Assembly: GCA_964106645.2 (NCBI GenBank)
Contig: OZ078259.1
Length of the DNA stretch: 64,000 bases
Strand: one strand, 5' to 3'
Origin: Podarcis pityusensis
Lineage: Eukaryota
The notes under the pieces are model-generated. The model saw nothing but the letters and a program-made list of their open reading frames with translations. It had not been told where the DNA came from and made no database searches. Made by a program: the position numbers and the translations under genes. Shown one piece after another: positions 20,390 through 42,800 of this stretch. Each line of letters starts with the position of its first letter. Position 1 is the stretch's first letter.

Positions 20390-20709
20390 ATGCCTCCAGT
20401 ATATTATTCTGAGACTGCCAGGGAGATGTGGGTGGTCTTCTCACCAGCCCCTCGAGCTGAAGGTGGTTCCTCTGTTCCTGGCGTGAATCCGCTCCTTAAG
20501 GAGTTCGCGGAAGTTCGTCAAAAGCAGTAGCGAGAAGCAGACCCGGGTTAACTCCTGCGTCACGGCCTGTCTGGACGAAGCAGGGATCCCACACGCCCCA
20601 CTCACAGCCAACTTCTCCAGCTGTCTGAAGGACCACAGCTCAGTACTAGAACACCTGCTTTGCATGCAGAAGGTTCTAAGTTCATTTTCCAACCATGTAC
20701 GGATGAGAG

Positions 20710-21694
20710 CAGTGGCGTAGCGTGGGGGGTGCAAGGGGTGCCGGCCGCACCGGGCGCAACATCTGGGGGGGCGCACTCGCCACCTCCAGAGTCGCCGAAG
20801 AGCCTCGGGGCTCAGCTCCTTTGGGAGGAGGGGTCGGGCTGGGTGACCAGGGGGAGTAGCAGGCGCTAGCAAGGAGGTCCGGAGCCGGAGCCTGGCCAGG
20901 ATCGGGCGCGGGATGGGGCGCAAGAGGGAGGGGAGAGTCGAGCCTGTCCGCCCCGCGAGGACTGCTGCGAAGAGGCGGGAGGGAGAGGAGACCCCTTGGG
21001 AGGAGCGGGCAGGTGCTGGGGCGGCAGTGCCGGGCGGGGGCCGAGGGGTGGGCGCCCCCCTGCGCGGGCATCGCCTCGCCGCCGCCGCGGGCATGGCTGG
21101 GCGACCGGCCGAGGGGAAACGCCAAACAAGGCCAGGATCCAGGCCCCCGCTCTCCTTATTTGGCGCCCATTTCCGGCTCCCGGGTGGCCTCCTCCCACCC
21201 GCTCTCGCTACCAGTGGAAAGAGAGACGGAGGAGCAGCGGAACCCGCAGCCTTTGCAGGCGCTGCCGGCCGGGAGAGGGGAGCGCGGAGGAGCCCCGCGG
21301 GGCCTGGGCCCGGCCAGCCGAGGGATCTTGTGGCGAGGAAGGAGCCCAGTCTGCGCCCTCCTTCCCCACAGAGCTGCAGAGGGAAATCAAGGTTCTCCTG
21401 CTAGTTTCTCTTCTTCTTCCCCCCCCCCCCACTGCGTTACAACCGTGCCCCCCCTCTCGGTGCACATAGCACGATTGCAATCTCTCTCTCACCCCCCCCC
21501 CCCAAGTTAAACTAATGGAGCAAGCCAGCGCCAAAGATTTGTAGAACTGTGAATACCCGGCCCAGGCAGCAGCAAGAAGCTGGCAGCGGCGGCAGGTTAG
21601 GGGTTAGGGGCGCAAATTACTTGCCTTGCCCCGGGTTAGGGGGCGCAAATTACTTGCCTTGCCCCGGGTGCTGACAACCCACGCTACGCCGCTG
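20710..21694. mobile_element. GC-rich non-autonomous hAT DNA transposon inserted in a tRNA-Ala SINE
   Basis: TIRs CAGTGGCGTAGCGTGGG / CCCACGCTACGCCGCTG; perfect 8-bp TSD GATGAGAG (20702-20709, 21695-21702); SINE halves flank it. Confidence 0.9.
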
Positions 21695-23661
21695 GATGAG
21701 AGAGACCCCATTCTGAAACCCTGGAGAGTCGCTGCTAGTCAGAGTAGACAATTCTGAGCTAAGTGGCAGCTTCCGTCGTTCCCAAGACCATGAGAAGATC
21801 TTCCAGGGGGAGGGGGAGTGCCCATCCCTGAGACTTCCTTATGCCGCATTCGCCAATCGAGGGGACACAGACCTTCAGGCCTGGTCCAAATGAGAGTCAA
21901 AAGTCTCCCCGCCAGAACTTCACTTTCCCAAACCAGAATCTTTGAGTTGTTTTGTTTTTCCCGGGAGGGAGGAGGGGGGAGTGCAAAGCCTAGACAGCAT
22001 AGGAAGCACTCCGCCCTTCAACTTTCTGCCTCTGGTAAACGCAATTTGGTCGACGTTTCTGTGGCGCCTTAAACACCACACAGCTGCCTTTCCCGCTGGG
22101 GATTCTTTTCGGCGCAGGCGCGTTCTGGCATAAATCAGCCCGAGCCAGTTCCTTCATTACAAGCACACTTCTGTACTTCTATTAACTTTAGCTGAAATGG
22201 ACATCCAGATGGCAGCATGCCTCTCCCAATGTATTCAGCACATACCTATTCCTGTTCTCCAACGCACCCATTCTTAGCCACCTGTCTCCGAGGGACGTGC
22301 CTCTCCTAGCCTGTGCGCTCCTGCACACCTGCTCGTACATCCCAGCTGCCAGGCTACGGATACATGGGAATTACCCCCACAGAACTCAGCGAGACTTGCT
22401 GCTGAGTAAAAATGAACAGTCGTTAAGAACGCAAGAGCCCTGCAGCTGCGTAAAACCAAAGTCCGATCCATTCTATCATCCTGTTCTAATACTTTGCGGC
22501 CAAATGCCCCCATGGGAAGCCCACGAGCAGGGCCTGGGAGCAAGAGCTCTTGCCACTTGTGATTCCCGGAGGCTGTTATTCAAAAGCTTACTGCCTCCGA
22601 CAGTGGCGAGATAACAAAGCCAAGCCATCGTGGCTAATAGCTACGGATAGCCTTATCAGCCATTCACACGTTCATAACTTTGCGCTTTTTAGTAGTTGCG
22701 CGCCCTCATCCACCAAAAATACACACAGGCGAATTTTCCCTGGGTCTTCTGTCAACTCTTCTACTGGGACTCTTCCACCGTGTAATAATAATGACCACTG
22801 TTCTCTATCCTCCAGTAGCTTCCAAACCGGTAAGTATGTATTTATGTAATTCAGTTAACGTGGAAGAACTGGCTTTAACGAATCTGTGGCGGGTAGGGCA
22901 GGAGGTTTCCTGTCCCACAACCTTTCCAGTGAAAATTCCTTAAATTAAAAATAGCGGACATTTTGGATGTGTGCCCCAGAGAGAGAGAGAGAGAGAGAGA
23001 GAGACGAGATACCCCTCAATTCCACTCCGTATTTAAATTTGACCTGCTTTGTCTGAACCGAGGACAGCGCCTGGAAGAAACCGGAAGGTTTAAAACTCAC
23101 AAAACCTCTAAATGTGTTTCAAACTGAGTGTGTCTTGGAGATAGGCTGATGGATTGGGCGGGGAGTAGTCGAAAATCTACGTTTCTGATTGTGGCAGATC
23201 ATTCTGGTACAGAGATACAACCACAGTGGTTCCTTATGAATTAAATCCCCACCTACCTTCATGACATTTTTCTTTTTTGCAATGGGAGACCCTGAGAGTA
23301 CTAAATCTCTCTCACTGTTCCAGCCACTGTTGCAATTCGGAATTGCTTTCTCCTGTCTGCCTCAGGAGCTGGTACAGGAACATAGGAAGCCGCCTTATAC
23401 AAAGTCAGATAATTGGTCTAACAAGCTCAGTGTCTACACTGACTGGCAGAAGCTCCCCCGGGGTTTCTCACACAGCACCCTCGCCCAGTCCTACCAGAAA
23501 ATGCAGGGGACTGAAACTGTGACCTTCTGCATGCAAAGCAAATGCTCTACCAGTGAGCTATGGCCCAACGACTGTGTGTATGTTAATGTGTAACCTTTAG
23601 AAATATGTTTCATAAATACTATTTAGGTTGGCAATCAGTGCAAATGGGAGATGGGCAGGAG

Positions 23662-26591: not shown

Positions 26592-28590
26592 ACCTATGCC
26601 TACTTCAATTTCACACCTGCCCCAGGCCCCTCCCAGTAACCAGGGGAAAGGAATGTGTGCTTGGGTAGTGTATTCACACTAGAGACAAATTGCTCATACT
26701 GGGGAACAGACTTTGAATTCAGATGCAGCTTTCTGGCTGACCCTTGCTGGAAAGAGGTGGAGCTTTTCTTATGCAGTAAGCCAGGATGGGGGATCTGTGG
26801 CCCTCCAGTTGTTGTTGGACTAGAGATCAGGGAGTTTGATTTAGACAACCCAGGGAAGGGCCCAAGTGGACTGAGGCAGGCAAATTGGGGCTTCAAGAGA
26901 TGTTGGAGCTGGCAGAAGGGACCAGGGATCAAAGTAAATCAGGAGCTGGATCCTGCGGAAGGTTCAAGCAGGTTGTCACAGAGTGGTGTTCTGCCCCTGT
27001 GATATCAGGCACCTCCAAAAGGACCATCACTGGTCCCTCCTGTCAATAAGGAGAGGGGAAGCACCAGAAAGTAAGCTGGATACTAAGGCAGCACCTCTGT
27101 TGCCAAGGACACAGAGACACCAGCACTGAAATGAACAACACCACAGCCCCAGCCTAGTTGCAGTAGTTTCCATTGGTTTGCCCAGAGCTGAAACACCTCT
27201 CATTTGCCACACAAAATTTTGTGCTCACCCTGATCTTCAGAACATGTAGCTGGTTGGAAGAATATCTCAGCTTGCACTTAGCCATGCCATTCACCTGCTG
27301 TGCCTTCCCTATGTATCACTCAGAGGTATGCATTAAATAATTTGACAGAAGCAGAAACTCAGGTTCCAGTTCTTCATCAGGCAGTGAGAGCCAGAACAGC
27401 TCCCACCACCCCTGACTGCTGGGGTTGATGGGAATTGGGATCCAACAATGTCTGCAAGGCTGCATGTTCTCAATCCCTGGTATAAAGTGAAACTCCTGAT
27501 CTTTCCTTGGAAGGTACTCCACTTTTAGAATCAAACAACCAGAAAACATATGCTCAAGAATGAGTTATGGATCACGAATAATTCTGAATAATTAATAGGG
27601 TTTTGAGAAAATCCTACTGTATTTACAGAGAAGCTGTGGACAAGACCAGAGGTGACATTGTCACGATGAATTATTCATTGTCATCACTTTCATTCACTCC
27701 CACTCTCTCTACCTCTCAGTCTACAGACGGAAAAATGGCCAACCTGAAGATGAATTTGGGGGAATTAAAACTTATAGTGGGAAAGACCACAACCCAGCTC
27801 ATTTTTTTCTTTTCTTTTTTAAAAACATCACTTCTTGTCAATGTGTATCTAGGAGGGACTACCTCTGGCAATCATTGGGCACTCATTCTGGTTGAAGAAC
27901 TTGAACATCTAATTTGACGTACGGTAATTACATTCTCATGACCTGAAGAACAAATAAACTTGAGCTACAAACTAAGCAAAGGTAGGAACTAAGATCACCA
28001 AGAGACAGACATGTTAATTTGGTGATAGTATTCAGCAAGTAAGATCAACACAAGTATGGATAATGGTGCCATCACCAACACAGGAACTGAGGAAGCTGCC
28101 CTAGACCAAGCAAGACCCTTGGTCAAGCTAGCACAGTATTGTTCAGACCAACTGATTGAGGTTCTCCAGGGTTCCTAGCAGGTGTTACTCACATGACTAC
28201 CTGGAAATGCAGCAGATTGAACCTGGGACCTTCTGCATGCAGAGCAGATGTTCTATCACTGAGCTGTGGTCCTTCTCCATTATTACACATTACTACATAC
28301 TGCACTTCGCACAAGAACACAGATCCCCATGTCAAATGCTAAATTTGACAGCAGAGGAAGGATTTTTAAAAATTGAGGCAAGAGGGATAGAATGACTGGA
28401 ATGTATGTATTTGCTTCCATGACGCACATAGCTCAGCTATAGTCAGGTCCAGGATGAAGGACTTAGATTTAAGACTATAAGCTTTTTGCATCTATGTTGC
28501 CAAACTGGTTGAAATCAGTATTAAAGGACTTAATTCATCAAGATCAGGCTGGATTTTTTACAGGCTGACAGTTGAAAGGCAATGTAAGGA

Positions 28591-29747
28591 GGGGGGGCCA
28601 CCAGGTGGCACATTGGAAGATGGCCGACAATAACATCTCTCTGACCCATACGAGGTAATTAAGAGGCTGCTATGGGAAGTATGCAGTCTTCCTACCCCCG
28701 CCCCCAAGGAGATGGGGGGCTGCCTTGCCAGCGGTGTCCACAATGCACCCCCGGATCCGAGAGTCGGGGGTGCCGGTCACTTGGCACGAGCCCTCGATGA
28801 AGTCAGCTCTTCCTGACACCGATTCCAATCAGCGCGCACTGGTTAGCTTCAGCTCGGAATTATAATTGGAAATACATAATTGGAATGAAGCTGAAGCACT
28901 TACATCAAGCAAAGTTCGAGAGATAAGGCTGCTGATTAATGCATCTCTGTGTTTGGAGCGACGGGAGGAGACAAATAAATCAAGCGATGAGCCACCATTA
29001 CGAGACTGGTATGTGTGGAGCGAAAAAGGGGGGGTGGAGGAAAAAACTTTTATTTTCTTTGCCTCATGTGAGTATTTATAAACCTCCACCCCAAGAGAGA
29101 CGAATCGTCACCTTTTACTAATCGCAAGCAAGAATTTAAGAGCTGTGTGGAGTGAATTATTTATTGAAGAGAGGACTGGTAAATATGGAGTGCGGAAGGA
29201 AAATTCTATGACGCAGTTGTTAATGGCGTCTTGCTAAGACAGGCTTGTTGAAGAAAGACGAGGGGAGGAGGACCAGGGTCATTGGAATGTAAATGATGGA
29301 TTGAATGTGATAACCTGGCAGAGCCCCTTTGTGATATATGTGGCAAGCTTGGGAAAATTAATAGGACGGACCGAGGATAAATTTTTGAAGAAGGGGAGTA
29401 ATGGCGGCTGTCCTTATGAGATATGACTTTTGGAGTGTGCAAAATCCACGCAGATGTTGTTTGTTCTTAACCTGCTTGCGAAGATTATCAGAGATTGCAA
29501 AGAAAGGAATACATGATAACAACAAGAAGATGAAGAAGTAATAAAGAGACTATCTGGACAGAGCTGGATAGAATCATTTGATAAAAGCAGTAACAGAAGT
29601 GATGCTTTGATTCTCGTTCGGAGCTTGATGTAAGGGTACCCCCAACAAAATTTTAAAATCTGGTTGTATAATTTGGAAGTAATATGATTTGGAAATAATG
29701 TGATTGGATTGGCCTGTTAATAAAAATTATGTTTAAAAAAAAAGAAA
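28591..29747 (+). mobile_element. non-coding, L1-type non-autonomous retroposon
   Basis: 17-bp TSD GAAAGGCAATGTAAGGA (28574-28590, 29748-29764); 5' G-run and AAGATGGCCG; AATAAA at 29719-29724 and A-rich tail; no long ORF. Confidence 0.8.
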
Positions 29748-30290
29748 GAAAGGCAATGTAAGGAATATAATGGATGTTATAGAATACTTAAAAGAAATGA
29801 TAAACAAGTTGCATTGGTGTGAAACAGAAAACCAAAGTTTCAGGGGGACTCCCAGTCCCCTGCATGTGGGAGTCAATGGGTCCTGACTCCTAAGAACTAC
29901 CATTGCTAAGTATTTCTGCCATTTACTGTCAGACATAAGTAGCTGGATTCAGCATGGTGGAGCAGAGAGGGGAGACTTATTCTTACCACAGTACCAGTTA
30001 TGTTATGCTACCAGCTTCAGAGTTGCCTGCTCCTCCCTGGGGAGACAGCCTCTGCCTTCTGCCAGCCTCTCCCCTATCCTTACCATGACACCTTCTGAGG
30101 TTTAGAAGCCACCAGAAGGAAATAGAGAGCTTGCAGCATCTCACTAACCCTACTGGGCTGCTTGCTAGTAAGCAGTTGATCTAGTGTAGGTGCAGCTAAC
30201 TTCCGGCCCTCCAGATGTTGCTGGACTGCAGCTCCCATAAGACCCATCCAGTATAGCCCAATAGCCAGGGGTGATGGAAGTCATAAGCCA

Positions 30291-39873: not shown

Positions 39874-42800
39874 TATGGGTTCAGAAAGCAGGCTTCGGAG
39901 CTCTGCAGGACTCTAATTGACTTTAATTGCTGTGCAGGGAAGTGATTTTCCCTTTTCCACTTTTAAACCTATCAATTCACTGAGAACTTATCAGCACTTT
40001 CTTATCTATGTTATAAGAAACACTCTGGGCAAGCACTGTGAGAAGCATCCTGGGCAGGCCGTTAGCTGCTAGCTGTTAATTGCCAGCTCCCTTTTACACT
40101 TTGTTTTTTGACTTCCTGGCAGTCATTACACAGAGAAGCTCTTCGACAGAATAAACTGCACACTTTTTTCCTTTCCTTTCCTGCTAAGGAATCCTCTCTT
40201 TGTTTACTCATCACCGCATTATTATGCCTGCTTGTAAATGCTACAGGGATACAGAAGAGGCAGTCCTTTCACCAGCTCTCAAACAATTAAAAATGGATTT
40301 AATAAATCTGTTTTCAGTTTCAACAACAAAAAAACGGTTTTCTCCTCTTGAAGTTGATTGTGAATGTGAGGAGAATACTTGGAGTGGGGGTGTAGAACTA
40401 GATTCAGCGATGGGGCAAGCTGACTCTGAGCTTCAAATAGAGGAAGAAATAACAAGTAGGGAAAGCACCCAATTAACTTTAATTGCAAGAATGGTTGAAC
40501 ACATCTTCCAACAAATTTGAGGTATCGCCTCCCAAATAACTCATTTATCCCAAGAGGTCCATAGATTATCTGTAAATAATAAGCAGGTACCAATAGACCA
40601 CCAAAGCACCGAAGTGAAATGGCGTCAACAAGAGCAGACCCCTAAGCTTGATGCAGAATGTGTAGAGGTCCTTAAAATTAACTGTTCTCATTTAATCTTT
40701 CAACCAAAAAAGATCTGCATGACAATCTGTCGAAGTTCAGATCAAGCTCCTAACTGGAAAGGCGCCCAGCGTGCCAAACGACATCTATCAGACTTACTTG
40801 GAATTGGACTTACAGAGATCAATCTAATTGGGACTGAATCCCTGAATACCACAAACCAATTCCAAAAAATCATGTTAACTTTTTCCTCTACCAGACTGCC
40901 CTTACTGATCCACAAATTGAAACCCAGATTGTCAAGCAGAGGAGTTTTTCCAACCCGGGTATTTCACAATTCTATTGTCGTGCCCTTATGCAAGATGAGG
41001 ACTAGGGCTACAGAGCGACCCATAAAACCAAAGCCTGGATCTCCAATGGTAGTAATGACATCGCAAACAAACTTGATAAGCCGGGAGGAAACAGACATGT
41101 CCAAGTTGAATCCACAGAATCATGCTCAGCATCAGTATTATCCCTTGGGAAATGATTTCCTCAACTCCTTTAGGAACCTCTCTCAGGAAAAGCAACAAAC
41201 AGTTATCAAGAGGCTTGACCTTATGAGCCAGACATTGAAAGAGAACAAAGAATCAGAGGTAGAGACTGACAACAGACCCAGTGTCCATAACTGTTTGATA
41301 TCTACGGAACCACCGGAGTTCTGGACAAAGATGAGACATTTAGATGAGGAGGAATTAGGAACTACGCTTAAGGAATCTCCGCTGGTGAGTAATTTTCAAA
41401 GTAAAGATCCAGTGAACTCAAATGTGAGCACTTTATGCCCAACGACTGAAATTATTGAACATCTGAATCACACTACTAATATAAATGATACCCTGTTGCC
41501 TCAAAAATTGGCAAACTCTAAAAGCACAATGACCAGCAATTTACTAAGAGGAAATCACTATAAAACAATCAAACTTCTATCATGGAATGTAACAGGGTGG
41601 CTGAACAAGATTCAAGACAGCGATTTCTGTTCCTATTTACAAACACATGATATCATTTTCCTGGAAGAAACCTGGGCAAAAGAAGGTACTATGGTTGAAT
41701 TACAGGGTTTTATAAGTTACACCCAGCCAGCACTTAAAACTGCAAAGTACGGAAGGCCTAGCGGGGGCTGGGGGGGCTGGTGTCAACATCTCTTAATGTA
41801 ACAATTCAACTGTGCCCCTCGCTGACCACCCCTAATTTTTTAGTGTTATCCCTCTCTGATTTCTCTCTGAGAAATACTGTATTTGCGTGTATATTCCTCC
41901 AGTAAAGTCCTGTGGGGAACCCTCCGCTAGGCCTTCCGTGCTTTGCAGTTTTAAGTGCTGGCTGGGTGTAACTTATTGGGAAAGACTTGACCAACTACTC
42001 GAAAGTATAGACTCTTTGTCGCCCAACCCTCGGTTTGTCTTGGGGGGCGACTTCAATGCCCAGATTGGCCTTGTCTCCCCACAAAATACAATATTAGCTG
42101 GACTAAACTTGAAGGACGAACCCGAAATCTGCCAGAGGGCAGCAATGGACACCACCTCTAACTACGCTGGGAAATACCTCTGTGAACTTATAATTAAGTA
42201 CAATCTTTTGTTATGTAATGGGCATGGACAAGGGAATCAGGAGGAGTATTTTGCTTTTATTTCCCCCAGTGGATTTACTAGCACCATAGATTATATACTA
42301 ACATCTAATAATGTTCCAGTTAATCGAGACACCCTTAGGATAATCCCCAGAGATGAAAGTGACCACTTTCCACTTGAGTTATCTCTTGCACCATTTGTTT
42401 CTCCTGCTTTCCCTAAAATATTGGATGAAACGGAATATCTGATACTTGGAAATAAAAGGTTAAAATGGAATGCACAGGTCCAGGAAAAAATGATCCCGAT
42501 CCTGGATTCTCATGAGTTTGCTTTATTAAAGGCGGAAATGTTGTTAGAAACAGGAAATGTAATCGGACTCTATGAGAATATAATTAACCGAATGCGCCCA
42601 CTGATGACCACAACCAGTGTGATCAAAAATAAAAAGTTCAAAAGACAGACATGGTTCGATAAGGAATGTCAGAATAGTAAAAAGTCTATCTAGGGAACTT
42701 AGAAAATTGAAGTTAAAGCACAATAAGCACAATCTTGCTCTACAAGCTGAGGTAGCTCAATTGCGATATAGTTATAAACTATTACTTAAAAGTAAGAAAC

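Follow-up and report, generated by a model that had tools for sequence, protein, structure and literature searches.

A young copy of a protein-free retroposon family with L1-type ends in Podarcis pityusensis, and the apparently late arrival of a CTCF consensus at its head

What is an element that carries the marks of L1 copying at both ends and has no gene in between? This question is raised by an insert of 1,157 bp on the plus strand, at 28591-29747 of a 64,000-nucleotide stretch of Podarcis pityusensis contig OZ078259.1 (assembly GCA_964106645.2); the whole of that stretch is referred to here as the window. This insert belongs to a retroposon family that encodes no protein, and is a young copy of full length. 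Our overall explanation, which we regard as probable, is that this family derives from the ends of an L1 element, contains no genes, is copied by L1, and has an internal RNA polymerase II (Pol II) promoter of its own. The most surprising part of the family is the repeated, apparently late gain of a consensus site for the protein CTCF.

The insert is flanked by a target-site duplication (TSD) of 17 nucleotides (nt), at 28574-28590 and 29748-29764 (both plus strand), whose two copies are 100% identical and which has TT just upstream. Contigs of four sequencing runs were compared with the locus. A contig of organism D joins 28573 directly to 29748, skipping 1,174 bases, with 17 letters that fit both sides and the duplicated word present as a single copy; this is the empty site, and it follows that the insertion and its TSD are true ones. 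In two runs of organism A, contigs span both insertion junctions without any difference. The first-pass annotation, made from the letters of the window alone, had claimed a perfect 17-bp TSD after TT and had suggested looking for an empty orthologous site in related lizards; the duplication is borne out, and the empty locus is present in a related species.

At its 3' end the element has a polyadenylation signal and tail (29717-29747, plus strand), with AATAAA at 29719-29724 and an A-rich tail at 29735-29747. The longest stop-free frame touching 28400-30000 is 100 amino acids long and lies on the minus strand, and a Pfam search of eight frames of the element gave a single weak match (E 0.089). 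By pattern search, the element holds no A or B box of the kind that RNA polymerase III (Pol III) uses, and six runs of four or more T lie inside it. A transfer RNA (tRNA) search of the element region found none, and an Rfam search of the element returned nothing at E<=1. The plus-strand head begins with a G-run (G7 here, 28591-28597; 4-7 G in 89/96 copies), followed by an exact match to the CTCF consensus CCASYAGRKGGCRS (28598-28611), the inverted CCAAT word ATTGG (28612-28616), and the YY1-type motif AAGATGGCCG (28617-28626). The tail, these four motifs, the want of a long open reading frame (ORF), and the want of Pol III boxes had all been described earlier, and each was found where it had been placed.

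Is this a single oddity, or one of many? The host genome (1.5 Gb) was searched with the element, giving 41 match rows from the 40 places scored, 35 of them near full length, at 84-100% identity. A 25-letter motif of the head, from which the CTCF part is excluded, occurs 1,072 times in the genome without mismatch (control 0), and hence there are at least 1,072 copies with an intact 5' end. In 85 of the first 100 of these heads the sequence runs on to the family tail, which comes at 993-1,361 nt (median 1,121 nt); ten of the 15 without a tail were traced over 8-9 kb, and four proved to belong to a further lineage, D, the others being interrupted or truncated. Exact TSDs of at least 10 nt flank 83 of 96 distinct full-length copies, with a length mode of 16-18 nt, compared with 1/96 in a mismatched-flank control. 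Copies that are truncated at the 5' end and bear the tail and a TSD also occur, and family sequence is present in indexed sequencing runs of seven organisms, with no RNA run listed among them. The genome search that had been proposed, for copies of ~1.15 kb with shared ends and distinct TSDs, thus confirms the multi-copy non-coding family that had been suspected, with copies of ~1.1 kb.

The copies fall into lineages A, B, and C, which are 61-71% alike and contain clusters 2.6-7.5% apart; all three include young copies. The window copy belongs to subfamily A1 of lineage A, and its nearest copies are 97.7-97.9% identical to it. Successive subfamilies are present in several parallel lineages. 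Across seven subfamily sequences, 85% of the first 60 columns are invariant, compared with 15-28% in the middle; the A-rich, non-coding body (28720-29630, plus strand) evolves fast, with 15-48% invariant columns per 60-column window. Lineage D (L328, L329, L330, and L336; ~1.28 kb) forms a bridge from the lizard L1 start to the G-run/CTCF head, and is intermediate between A-C and F2, a more distantly related second ORF-less family of ~1.35 kb that is exemplified by L209:281-1650 (G000:C10:74904580-74905950) and found at loci L220-L249. F2 gave 45 match rows, has a TSD of at least 8 nt in 17 of 20 full-length copies, and shows a poly(A) end and an L1-like head of ETS/YY1 type. Its two ends are collinear with those of A-C (E 8e-5 and 4e-6), and the same holds for lineage D. 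Searching F2 with the nhmmer profile of the main family found nothing, and the link between the two was drawn from blastn, shuffled alignments, and lineage D. As a side observation, the 38-Mb contig C19 of G000 is home to many of the intact L1s and F2 copies and to many duplicates whose flanks are shared, a richness in repeats that might be sex-chromosome-like.

From what, then, does the family descend? The host genome has several families of two-ORF long interspersed elements (LINEs), with intact ORF2 frames of 1,241-1,263 amino acids that include endonuclease and reverse transcriptase domains; we called these LINEs L1 by their layout, poly(A) ends, and starts. Host L1s with located 5' ends begin GACTTCCGG or a near variant of it, which is the start given for lizard clade-1 L1s in the relevant section of PMC5381506. 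Lineage D and F2 retain this type of start, that is, the ETS-like GACTTCCG followed by ATGGC. The head of L328, a lineage D copy, has the same motif order, spacing, and first bases as the L122-type head, and against the heads of L1 loci L122 and L125 it scores higher than all of 5,000 shuffles (0/5,000 as high). With nine L1 heads tried, the A2, B, C, and F2 heads match one L1 family only (L122/L125/L128); for A2, C, and F2 versus L122 or L125, p is 0.001-0.002, and of the remaining heads of the nine only L128, of that same family, comes in at p<0.05. The ATGGC core of the YY1-type motif is common to lineages A-D, F2, and one host L1 family. At the other end, the window copy and one host L1 family (L198, L199) share their last 17 nt without a difference, and this family is not the one matched by the head. 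Upstream of these 17 nt lies a conserved block (29634-29646, plus strand) whose counterpart in D and F2 has a motif found in 9/9 host L1 3' untranslated regions (UTRs), a motif picked after viewing the sequences. The elements are 1.1-1.36 kb long with 42-44% GC; host L1 5'UTRs measure 1.0-1.8 kb, with 43-49% GC.

That this is a non-coding family mobilised by L1 is, in our view, very probable. Since lineage D starts like the host L1s and its head match was equalled by none of the 5,000 shuffles, an L1's 5' and 3' ends are the likely source, and we judge it probable that the family descends from an L1's own two ends. It is from the ends that this descent is drawn, because the body aligns to none of the nine sampled L1 5'UTRs. 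The family would then work like a bipartite non-autonomous LINE with L1-type ends, with alignment to its presumed partner limited to ~30 nt. The first-pass annotation had proposed an L1-like promoter joined to a 3' end and had asked how the 5' part aligns to lizard L1 5'UTRs; the L1-type head and tail are supported, and the alignment covers the ~30 nt of the heads and nothing beyond. Its comparison with the G-rich start of human L1 has to be replaced; the lizard L1 start (GACTTCCG, ATGGC) fits instead, and the G-run/CTCF head would be a later derivative.

It is important to set out what weighs against an origin from L1 ends. The body gave no alignment with the nine L1 5'UTRs (best z 4.0, at A-rich non-matching positions), nor with 23 LINE loci by blastn and nhmmer. 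With a match of ~30 nt, the heads could have converged on ETS and YY1 sites. A second lineage D copy, L329, matches L1 heads weakly (p 0.015-0.04). The 3' motif of D and F2 turns up in 5-12% of shuffles, and A, B, and C lack it. None of the 100 heads leads into an ORF1, and the interrupted or 3'-truncated copies examined show no continuing L1; an autonomous partner with the family head was, in other words, not found among them. Target-site preference is loose, with T at -1 in 49/82 copies and A-rich sequence after the cut, where the A counts are inflated by the element's own tail. Please note, in connection with the body, that different host L1 5'UTR groups likewise fail to align among themselves.

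Much of this evidence also bears on where else the family could have come from. The copies might be ordinary retrocopies of one cellular mRNA or long non-coding RNA (lncRNA), as TSDs, a poly(A) tail, and missing Pol III boxes would suit any retrocopy. This explanation is already largely refuted, and we give it almost no credence: there are more than 1,000 copies, and several young lineages as divergent as A, B, and C (61-71% alike, each with young copies 2.6-7.5% apart within clusters) cannot have a single parent gene as their source. Nor do we find it at all likely that the family is a decayed HAL1-like element (5'UTR, ORF1, and tail) or a Pol III short interspersed element (SINE). HAL1 is a known L1-derived non-autonomous form (see the treatment of bipartite elements in PMC5786205), but across 618 frames profiles of host ORF1, host ORF2, and a broader ORF2 C-terminus gave no signal that clearly exceeded reversed controls (best E 0.067, from a single old copy; next 1.3), and 51 of 59 insertions and deletions between A subfamilies are of only 1-2 nt. 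A SINE is opposed by the lack of A and B boxes, by internal T4 runs from about +370 to +480 on, and by the lack of any tRNA or Rfam head; a search for heads of tRNA, 7SL, 5S, or small nuclear RNA type gave five matches, all far under gathering scores. A resemblance to the L1 ORF2 C-terminus (tblastn E 0.23) was pursued and dropped, the signal being lost with a 169-sequence profile (best E 7.7, versus a best E of 3 for reversed controls). An LTR (long terminal repeat) element or a DNA transposon was rejected as the source because of the poly(A) end, variable TSDs, and 5' truncations.

A less easily dismissed rival, although still an improbable one, accepts mobilisation by L1 and derives the sequence from a cellular Pol II transcript (for example a lncRNA or a piece of a promoter) with ETS and YY1 sites that only resemble L1 heads. 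Host promoters often carry ETS and YY1 motifs, the match of the heads is short, and the body aligns to no sampled L1. What speaks for descent from an L1 instead is the order, spacing, and first bases that the D head shares with the L122-type head, together with a length, composition, and 3' terminus that resemble L1 UTRs; a single-copy parent was not seen among the 40 places scored per genome search, which is a weak test.

We turn to the CTCF consensus, which was taken from the relevant part of PMC6746451. Besides the window copy, it fits 41 of the 100 unbiased heads, the commonest misfit being one G fewer; a higher figure of 87/96 was set aside because part of that set had been chosen by CTCF-containing patterns. 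Trees were built from the body only, with the head excluded, as a 93-row tree (in which one outgroup row is mis-trimmed) and a 40-row subset that was chosen after viewing it. In each of A, B, and C, heads with four G sit on basal rungs and heads with five G at the tips. The five-G state needs four changes, three of them forced by well-supported branches, and a single clade of five-G copies is rejected (approximately unbiased test, p-AU 1.4e-55); an early single gain would demand many losses along the basal rungs. The gain in A is a separate one, as the earliest five-G copy of A (L254) retains an older CCGC word. The match in the window copy, a predicted site, would thus be in a derived state, and it appears that the CTCF match is not ancestral and was gained late, in two or three lineages separately. 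The CTCF core that had been described for the family's 5' cassette is exact in the window copy, and across the family it is confined to those 41/100 heads as a late gain. The inverted CCAAT word does not hold as cargo of the family; it is present in 64/100 heads, is missing in lineage C and subfamily A5 at the level of the majority sequence, and is not conserved across the family.

The number of such sites is considerable. Two exact CTCF-bearing head patterns have 128 and 281 genome matches, which gives at least 409 heads, and all 60 of 60 loci read from them are family members. The genome has 4,428 exact CTCF-consensus sites (control 105), of which the family accounts for at least 9%.

Was the site gained for its binding, or by accident? 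We consider it possible, at somewhat less than even chances, that real binding favoured the gain. The neutral explanation, which comes just short of an even chance, holds that slippage in the G-run was carried along by replacement of master copies, without binding or effect. It has in its favour that the change is a one-base slip, that older subfamilies spread without the match, and that just two or three events are involved. Against it, the change runs in the same direction in every surviving lineage, with no lineage-wide reversal seen; the two later differences within the site in A (T to C and G to T) both sit on degenerate positions of the consensus; and four other short C/G runs are stable, keeping their length in 72/94, 53/54, 87/90, and 51/56 copies (the 72/94 being pattern matches, with 15 of the remainder mis-hits of length 1). 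Selection for binding has its own difficulties. A G-run easily gains a further G by mutation; the match is not required, since lineages multiplied without it (four-G heads without a CTCF match make up 30/92 rows); and B and C could share one five-G gain through conversion of the 5' end.

Further words near or inside these motifs were observed in passing. Additional ATGGCG (YY1-type) words lie in the body at 29221-29228 and 29399-29406, one of them with counterparts in D and F2. Far inside the 5'UTR of one L1 family (L213-L217), the minus strand shows a partial CTCF-like word. Directly after the head, at 28652-28660, is a splice-donor-like AG/GTAAT that A, B, C, and most D copies retain and with which the head could serve as a first exon for neighbouring genes; RNA splice joints at this word were not seen, in data that could reveal only joints inside the stretch covered.

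Put together as a history, the preferred explanation would run as follows. An old lizard L1 would have lost both of its genes and kept its 5' and 3' ends; the resulting family likely depends on an internal Pol II promoter of its own for transcription and on the proteins of intact L1s for copying in trans. The ancestral head would be of lizard-L1 type, an ETS-like CTTCCG followed by a YY1-type ATGGC, as still found in lineage D and F2. On the line to A, B, and C the ETS-like word may have been altered stepwise, CTTCCG to GCCG to GCCA, after which, at a late stage in each of these three lineages, one extra G would have completed the CTCF consensus. With CTCF at its transcription start, a source copy might stay open and expressed, and carriers might in this way have taken over each lineage, with several hundred oriented CTCF-consensus sites scattered by the family as a by-product. 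In its fullest form, we hold this account only tentatively and think it rather unlikely to be right in every part: an old lizard superfamily of gene-less L1 derivatives, of a kind that was missing from the 2018 listing for the L1 clade, would have had its promoter rebuilt from ETS/YY1 to CTCF/YY1, with CTCF gained in parallel by three lineages for their own transcription, and would now account for about one-tenth of the best-match CTCF sites in the genome; many of these would be species-specific, and chromatin loops would in this way be rewired from one related lizard to another.

How does this compare with known systems? The SVA and LAVA elements of primates are long, non-coding, L1-dependent retroposons thought to use Pol II. 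The window family differs from them in having no composite Alu, tandem-repeat (VNTR), and endogenous-retrovirus (ERV) structure, a constant length, and an L1-type internal head. In its treatment of bipartite LINEs, Kojima (2018, PMC5786205) records ORF-absent forms only for RTE, Ingi, Vingi, and R2, the examples being RIME from Ingi, Vingi derivatives, Bov-A, WALLSI3/RTESINE2, and R2 derivatives, and the entry for L1 is HAL1, which keeps ORF1. With the ORF-less forms as described there the window family shares the absence of an ORF, LINE-like ends, and presumed Pol II transcription and mobilisation in trans; it differs in that their sources are RTE, Ingi, Vingi, and R2, whereas its own ends are of L1 type, and no partner LINE aligning beyond ~30 nt at either end was found. 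HAL1 is likewise a non-autonomous element of the L1 clade with L1-type ends, but retains ORF1, of which the window family, at 1.1-1.36 kb in total, has neither copy nor relic.

For lizard clade-1 L1s, the section on their 5'UTRs in Boissinot and Sookdeo (2016, PMC5381506) gives the start consensus GACTTCCGGTGN8ATGGCG and a 5'UTR of 792-1,465 bp with 45% GC. That start resembles the D and F2 heads, the UTR resembles the whole element in length and GC, and in both conservation is highest over the first 120 bp. In contrast, no ORFs follow in the family, A, B, and C have swapped GACTTCCG for the G-run and CTCF-like word, and the bodies do not align. YY1 has been tied to the initiation of human L1 transcription, as cited in passages of PMC5381506 and PMC8535693, and repeats that spread YY1 motifs are described from a fish (PMC10760456, in part). 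For the CTCF gain, the closest precedent we found is the SINE B2_Mm1 of Mus caroli, in which, according to the pertinent passages of Thybert et al. (2018, PMC5880236), a one-base change makes a carrier of a CTCF site that then spreads. B2_Mm1 is, however, a tRNA-derived Pol III SINE with binding proven by chromatin immunoprecipitation (ChIP) and one origin, in mouse; the family described here is presumed to be of Pol II type and is reptilian, with two or three parallel gains at a predicted transcription start and a site predicted from sequence. Searches of an open-access literature collection listed no description of the window family.

If the explanation from L1 ends is true, it adds a missing entry to the LINE clades that yield ORF-less Pol II parasites. 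In its dated copies the family also records promoter states that grade into one another. Heads with four and five G, one base apart in otherwise similar copies, provide a natural control for whether the CTCF match was gained for the element's own benefit or by chance. Copies that are present or absent between species, the window locus included, permit a direct test of what new CTCF-consensus sites do to reptile chromatin loops.

Does the RNA of the family have structure, and is it made? Two hairpins follow the head: hairpin 1 (28663-28690, plus strand), with a 7-bp stem and compensatory changes, and hairpin 2 (28701-28718, plus strand), whose stem sequence varies by lineage while pairing is kept. 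In 27 copies hand-picked across A-D and F2, 188 of 189 cells of hairpin 1 are paired, with changes on both sides at three of its seven pairs; 0/500 shuffles reached the paired share and 55/500 the number of double-changed pairs. For each hairpin, own arms bind better than swapped arms in a test equalled by 0/20,000 permutations, a signal to which kinship and palindrome-correcting mutation can contribute. RNAalifold did not recover hairpin 2, as the alignment is out of register there. The first 150 nt fold better than shuffles in C (z -2.3), D (-2.5), and F2 (-3.7), to a lesser degree in B (-1.3), and host L1 heads are likewise predicted to form tandem hairpins; a search of the conserved 3' block found no shared fold. 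We infer that the hairpins act at the RNA level.

In RNA from four organism D runs, 206, 153, 137, and 119 reads (per 10-13 million) match the element at >=85% likeness. None does so at 99%, as expected with the window locus being empty in organism D. Two bulk runs lean to one strand, with first-mate minus:plus sums from the depth table of ~195:45 and 118:58, and, assuming stranded libraries of the common type, this lean would be to the sense strand. On the debit side of an internally promoted, structured RNA, the window copy's own first 150 nt fold no better than shuffles (z +0.53), the reads are few and show no pile-up at the start site, and read-through contributes to them, since some extend into upstream flanks.

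Finally, the surroundings of the insert include other features. About 500 bp downstream, on the same strand, is a separate 5'-truncated L1 (30287-31800) with an ORF2 C-terminus containing one frame change, a 3'UTR, and a poly(A) end; it belongs to a very abundant family with 55,441 candidates. At 40521-42690 an ORF1-like frame is followed by an endonuclease frame (PF03372), by eye resembling the LINE at L208, which has an (ACTG)n tail and a YY1-type motif at its start. Approximately 7 kb upstream of the element, at 20400-22000, lies a GC-rich island (58-63% GC) that is probably a host promoter.

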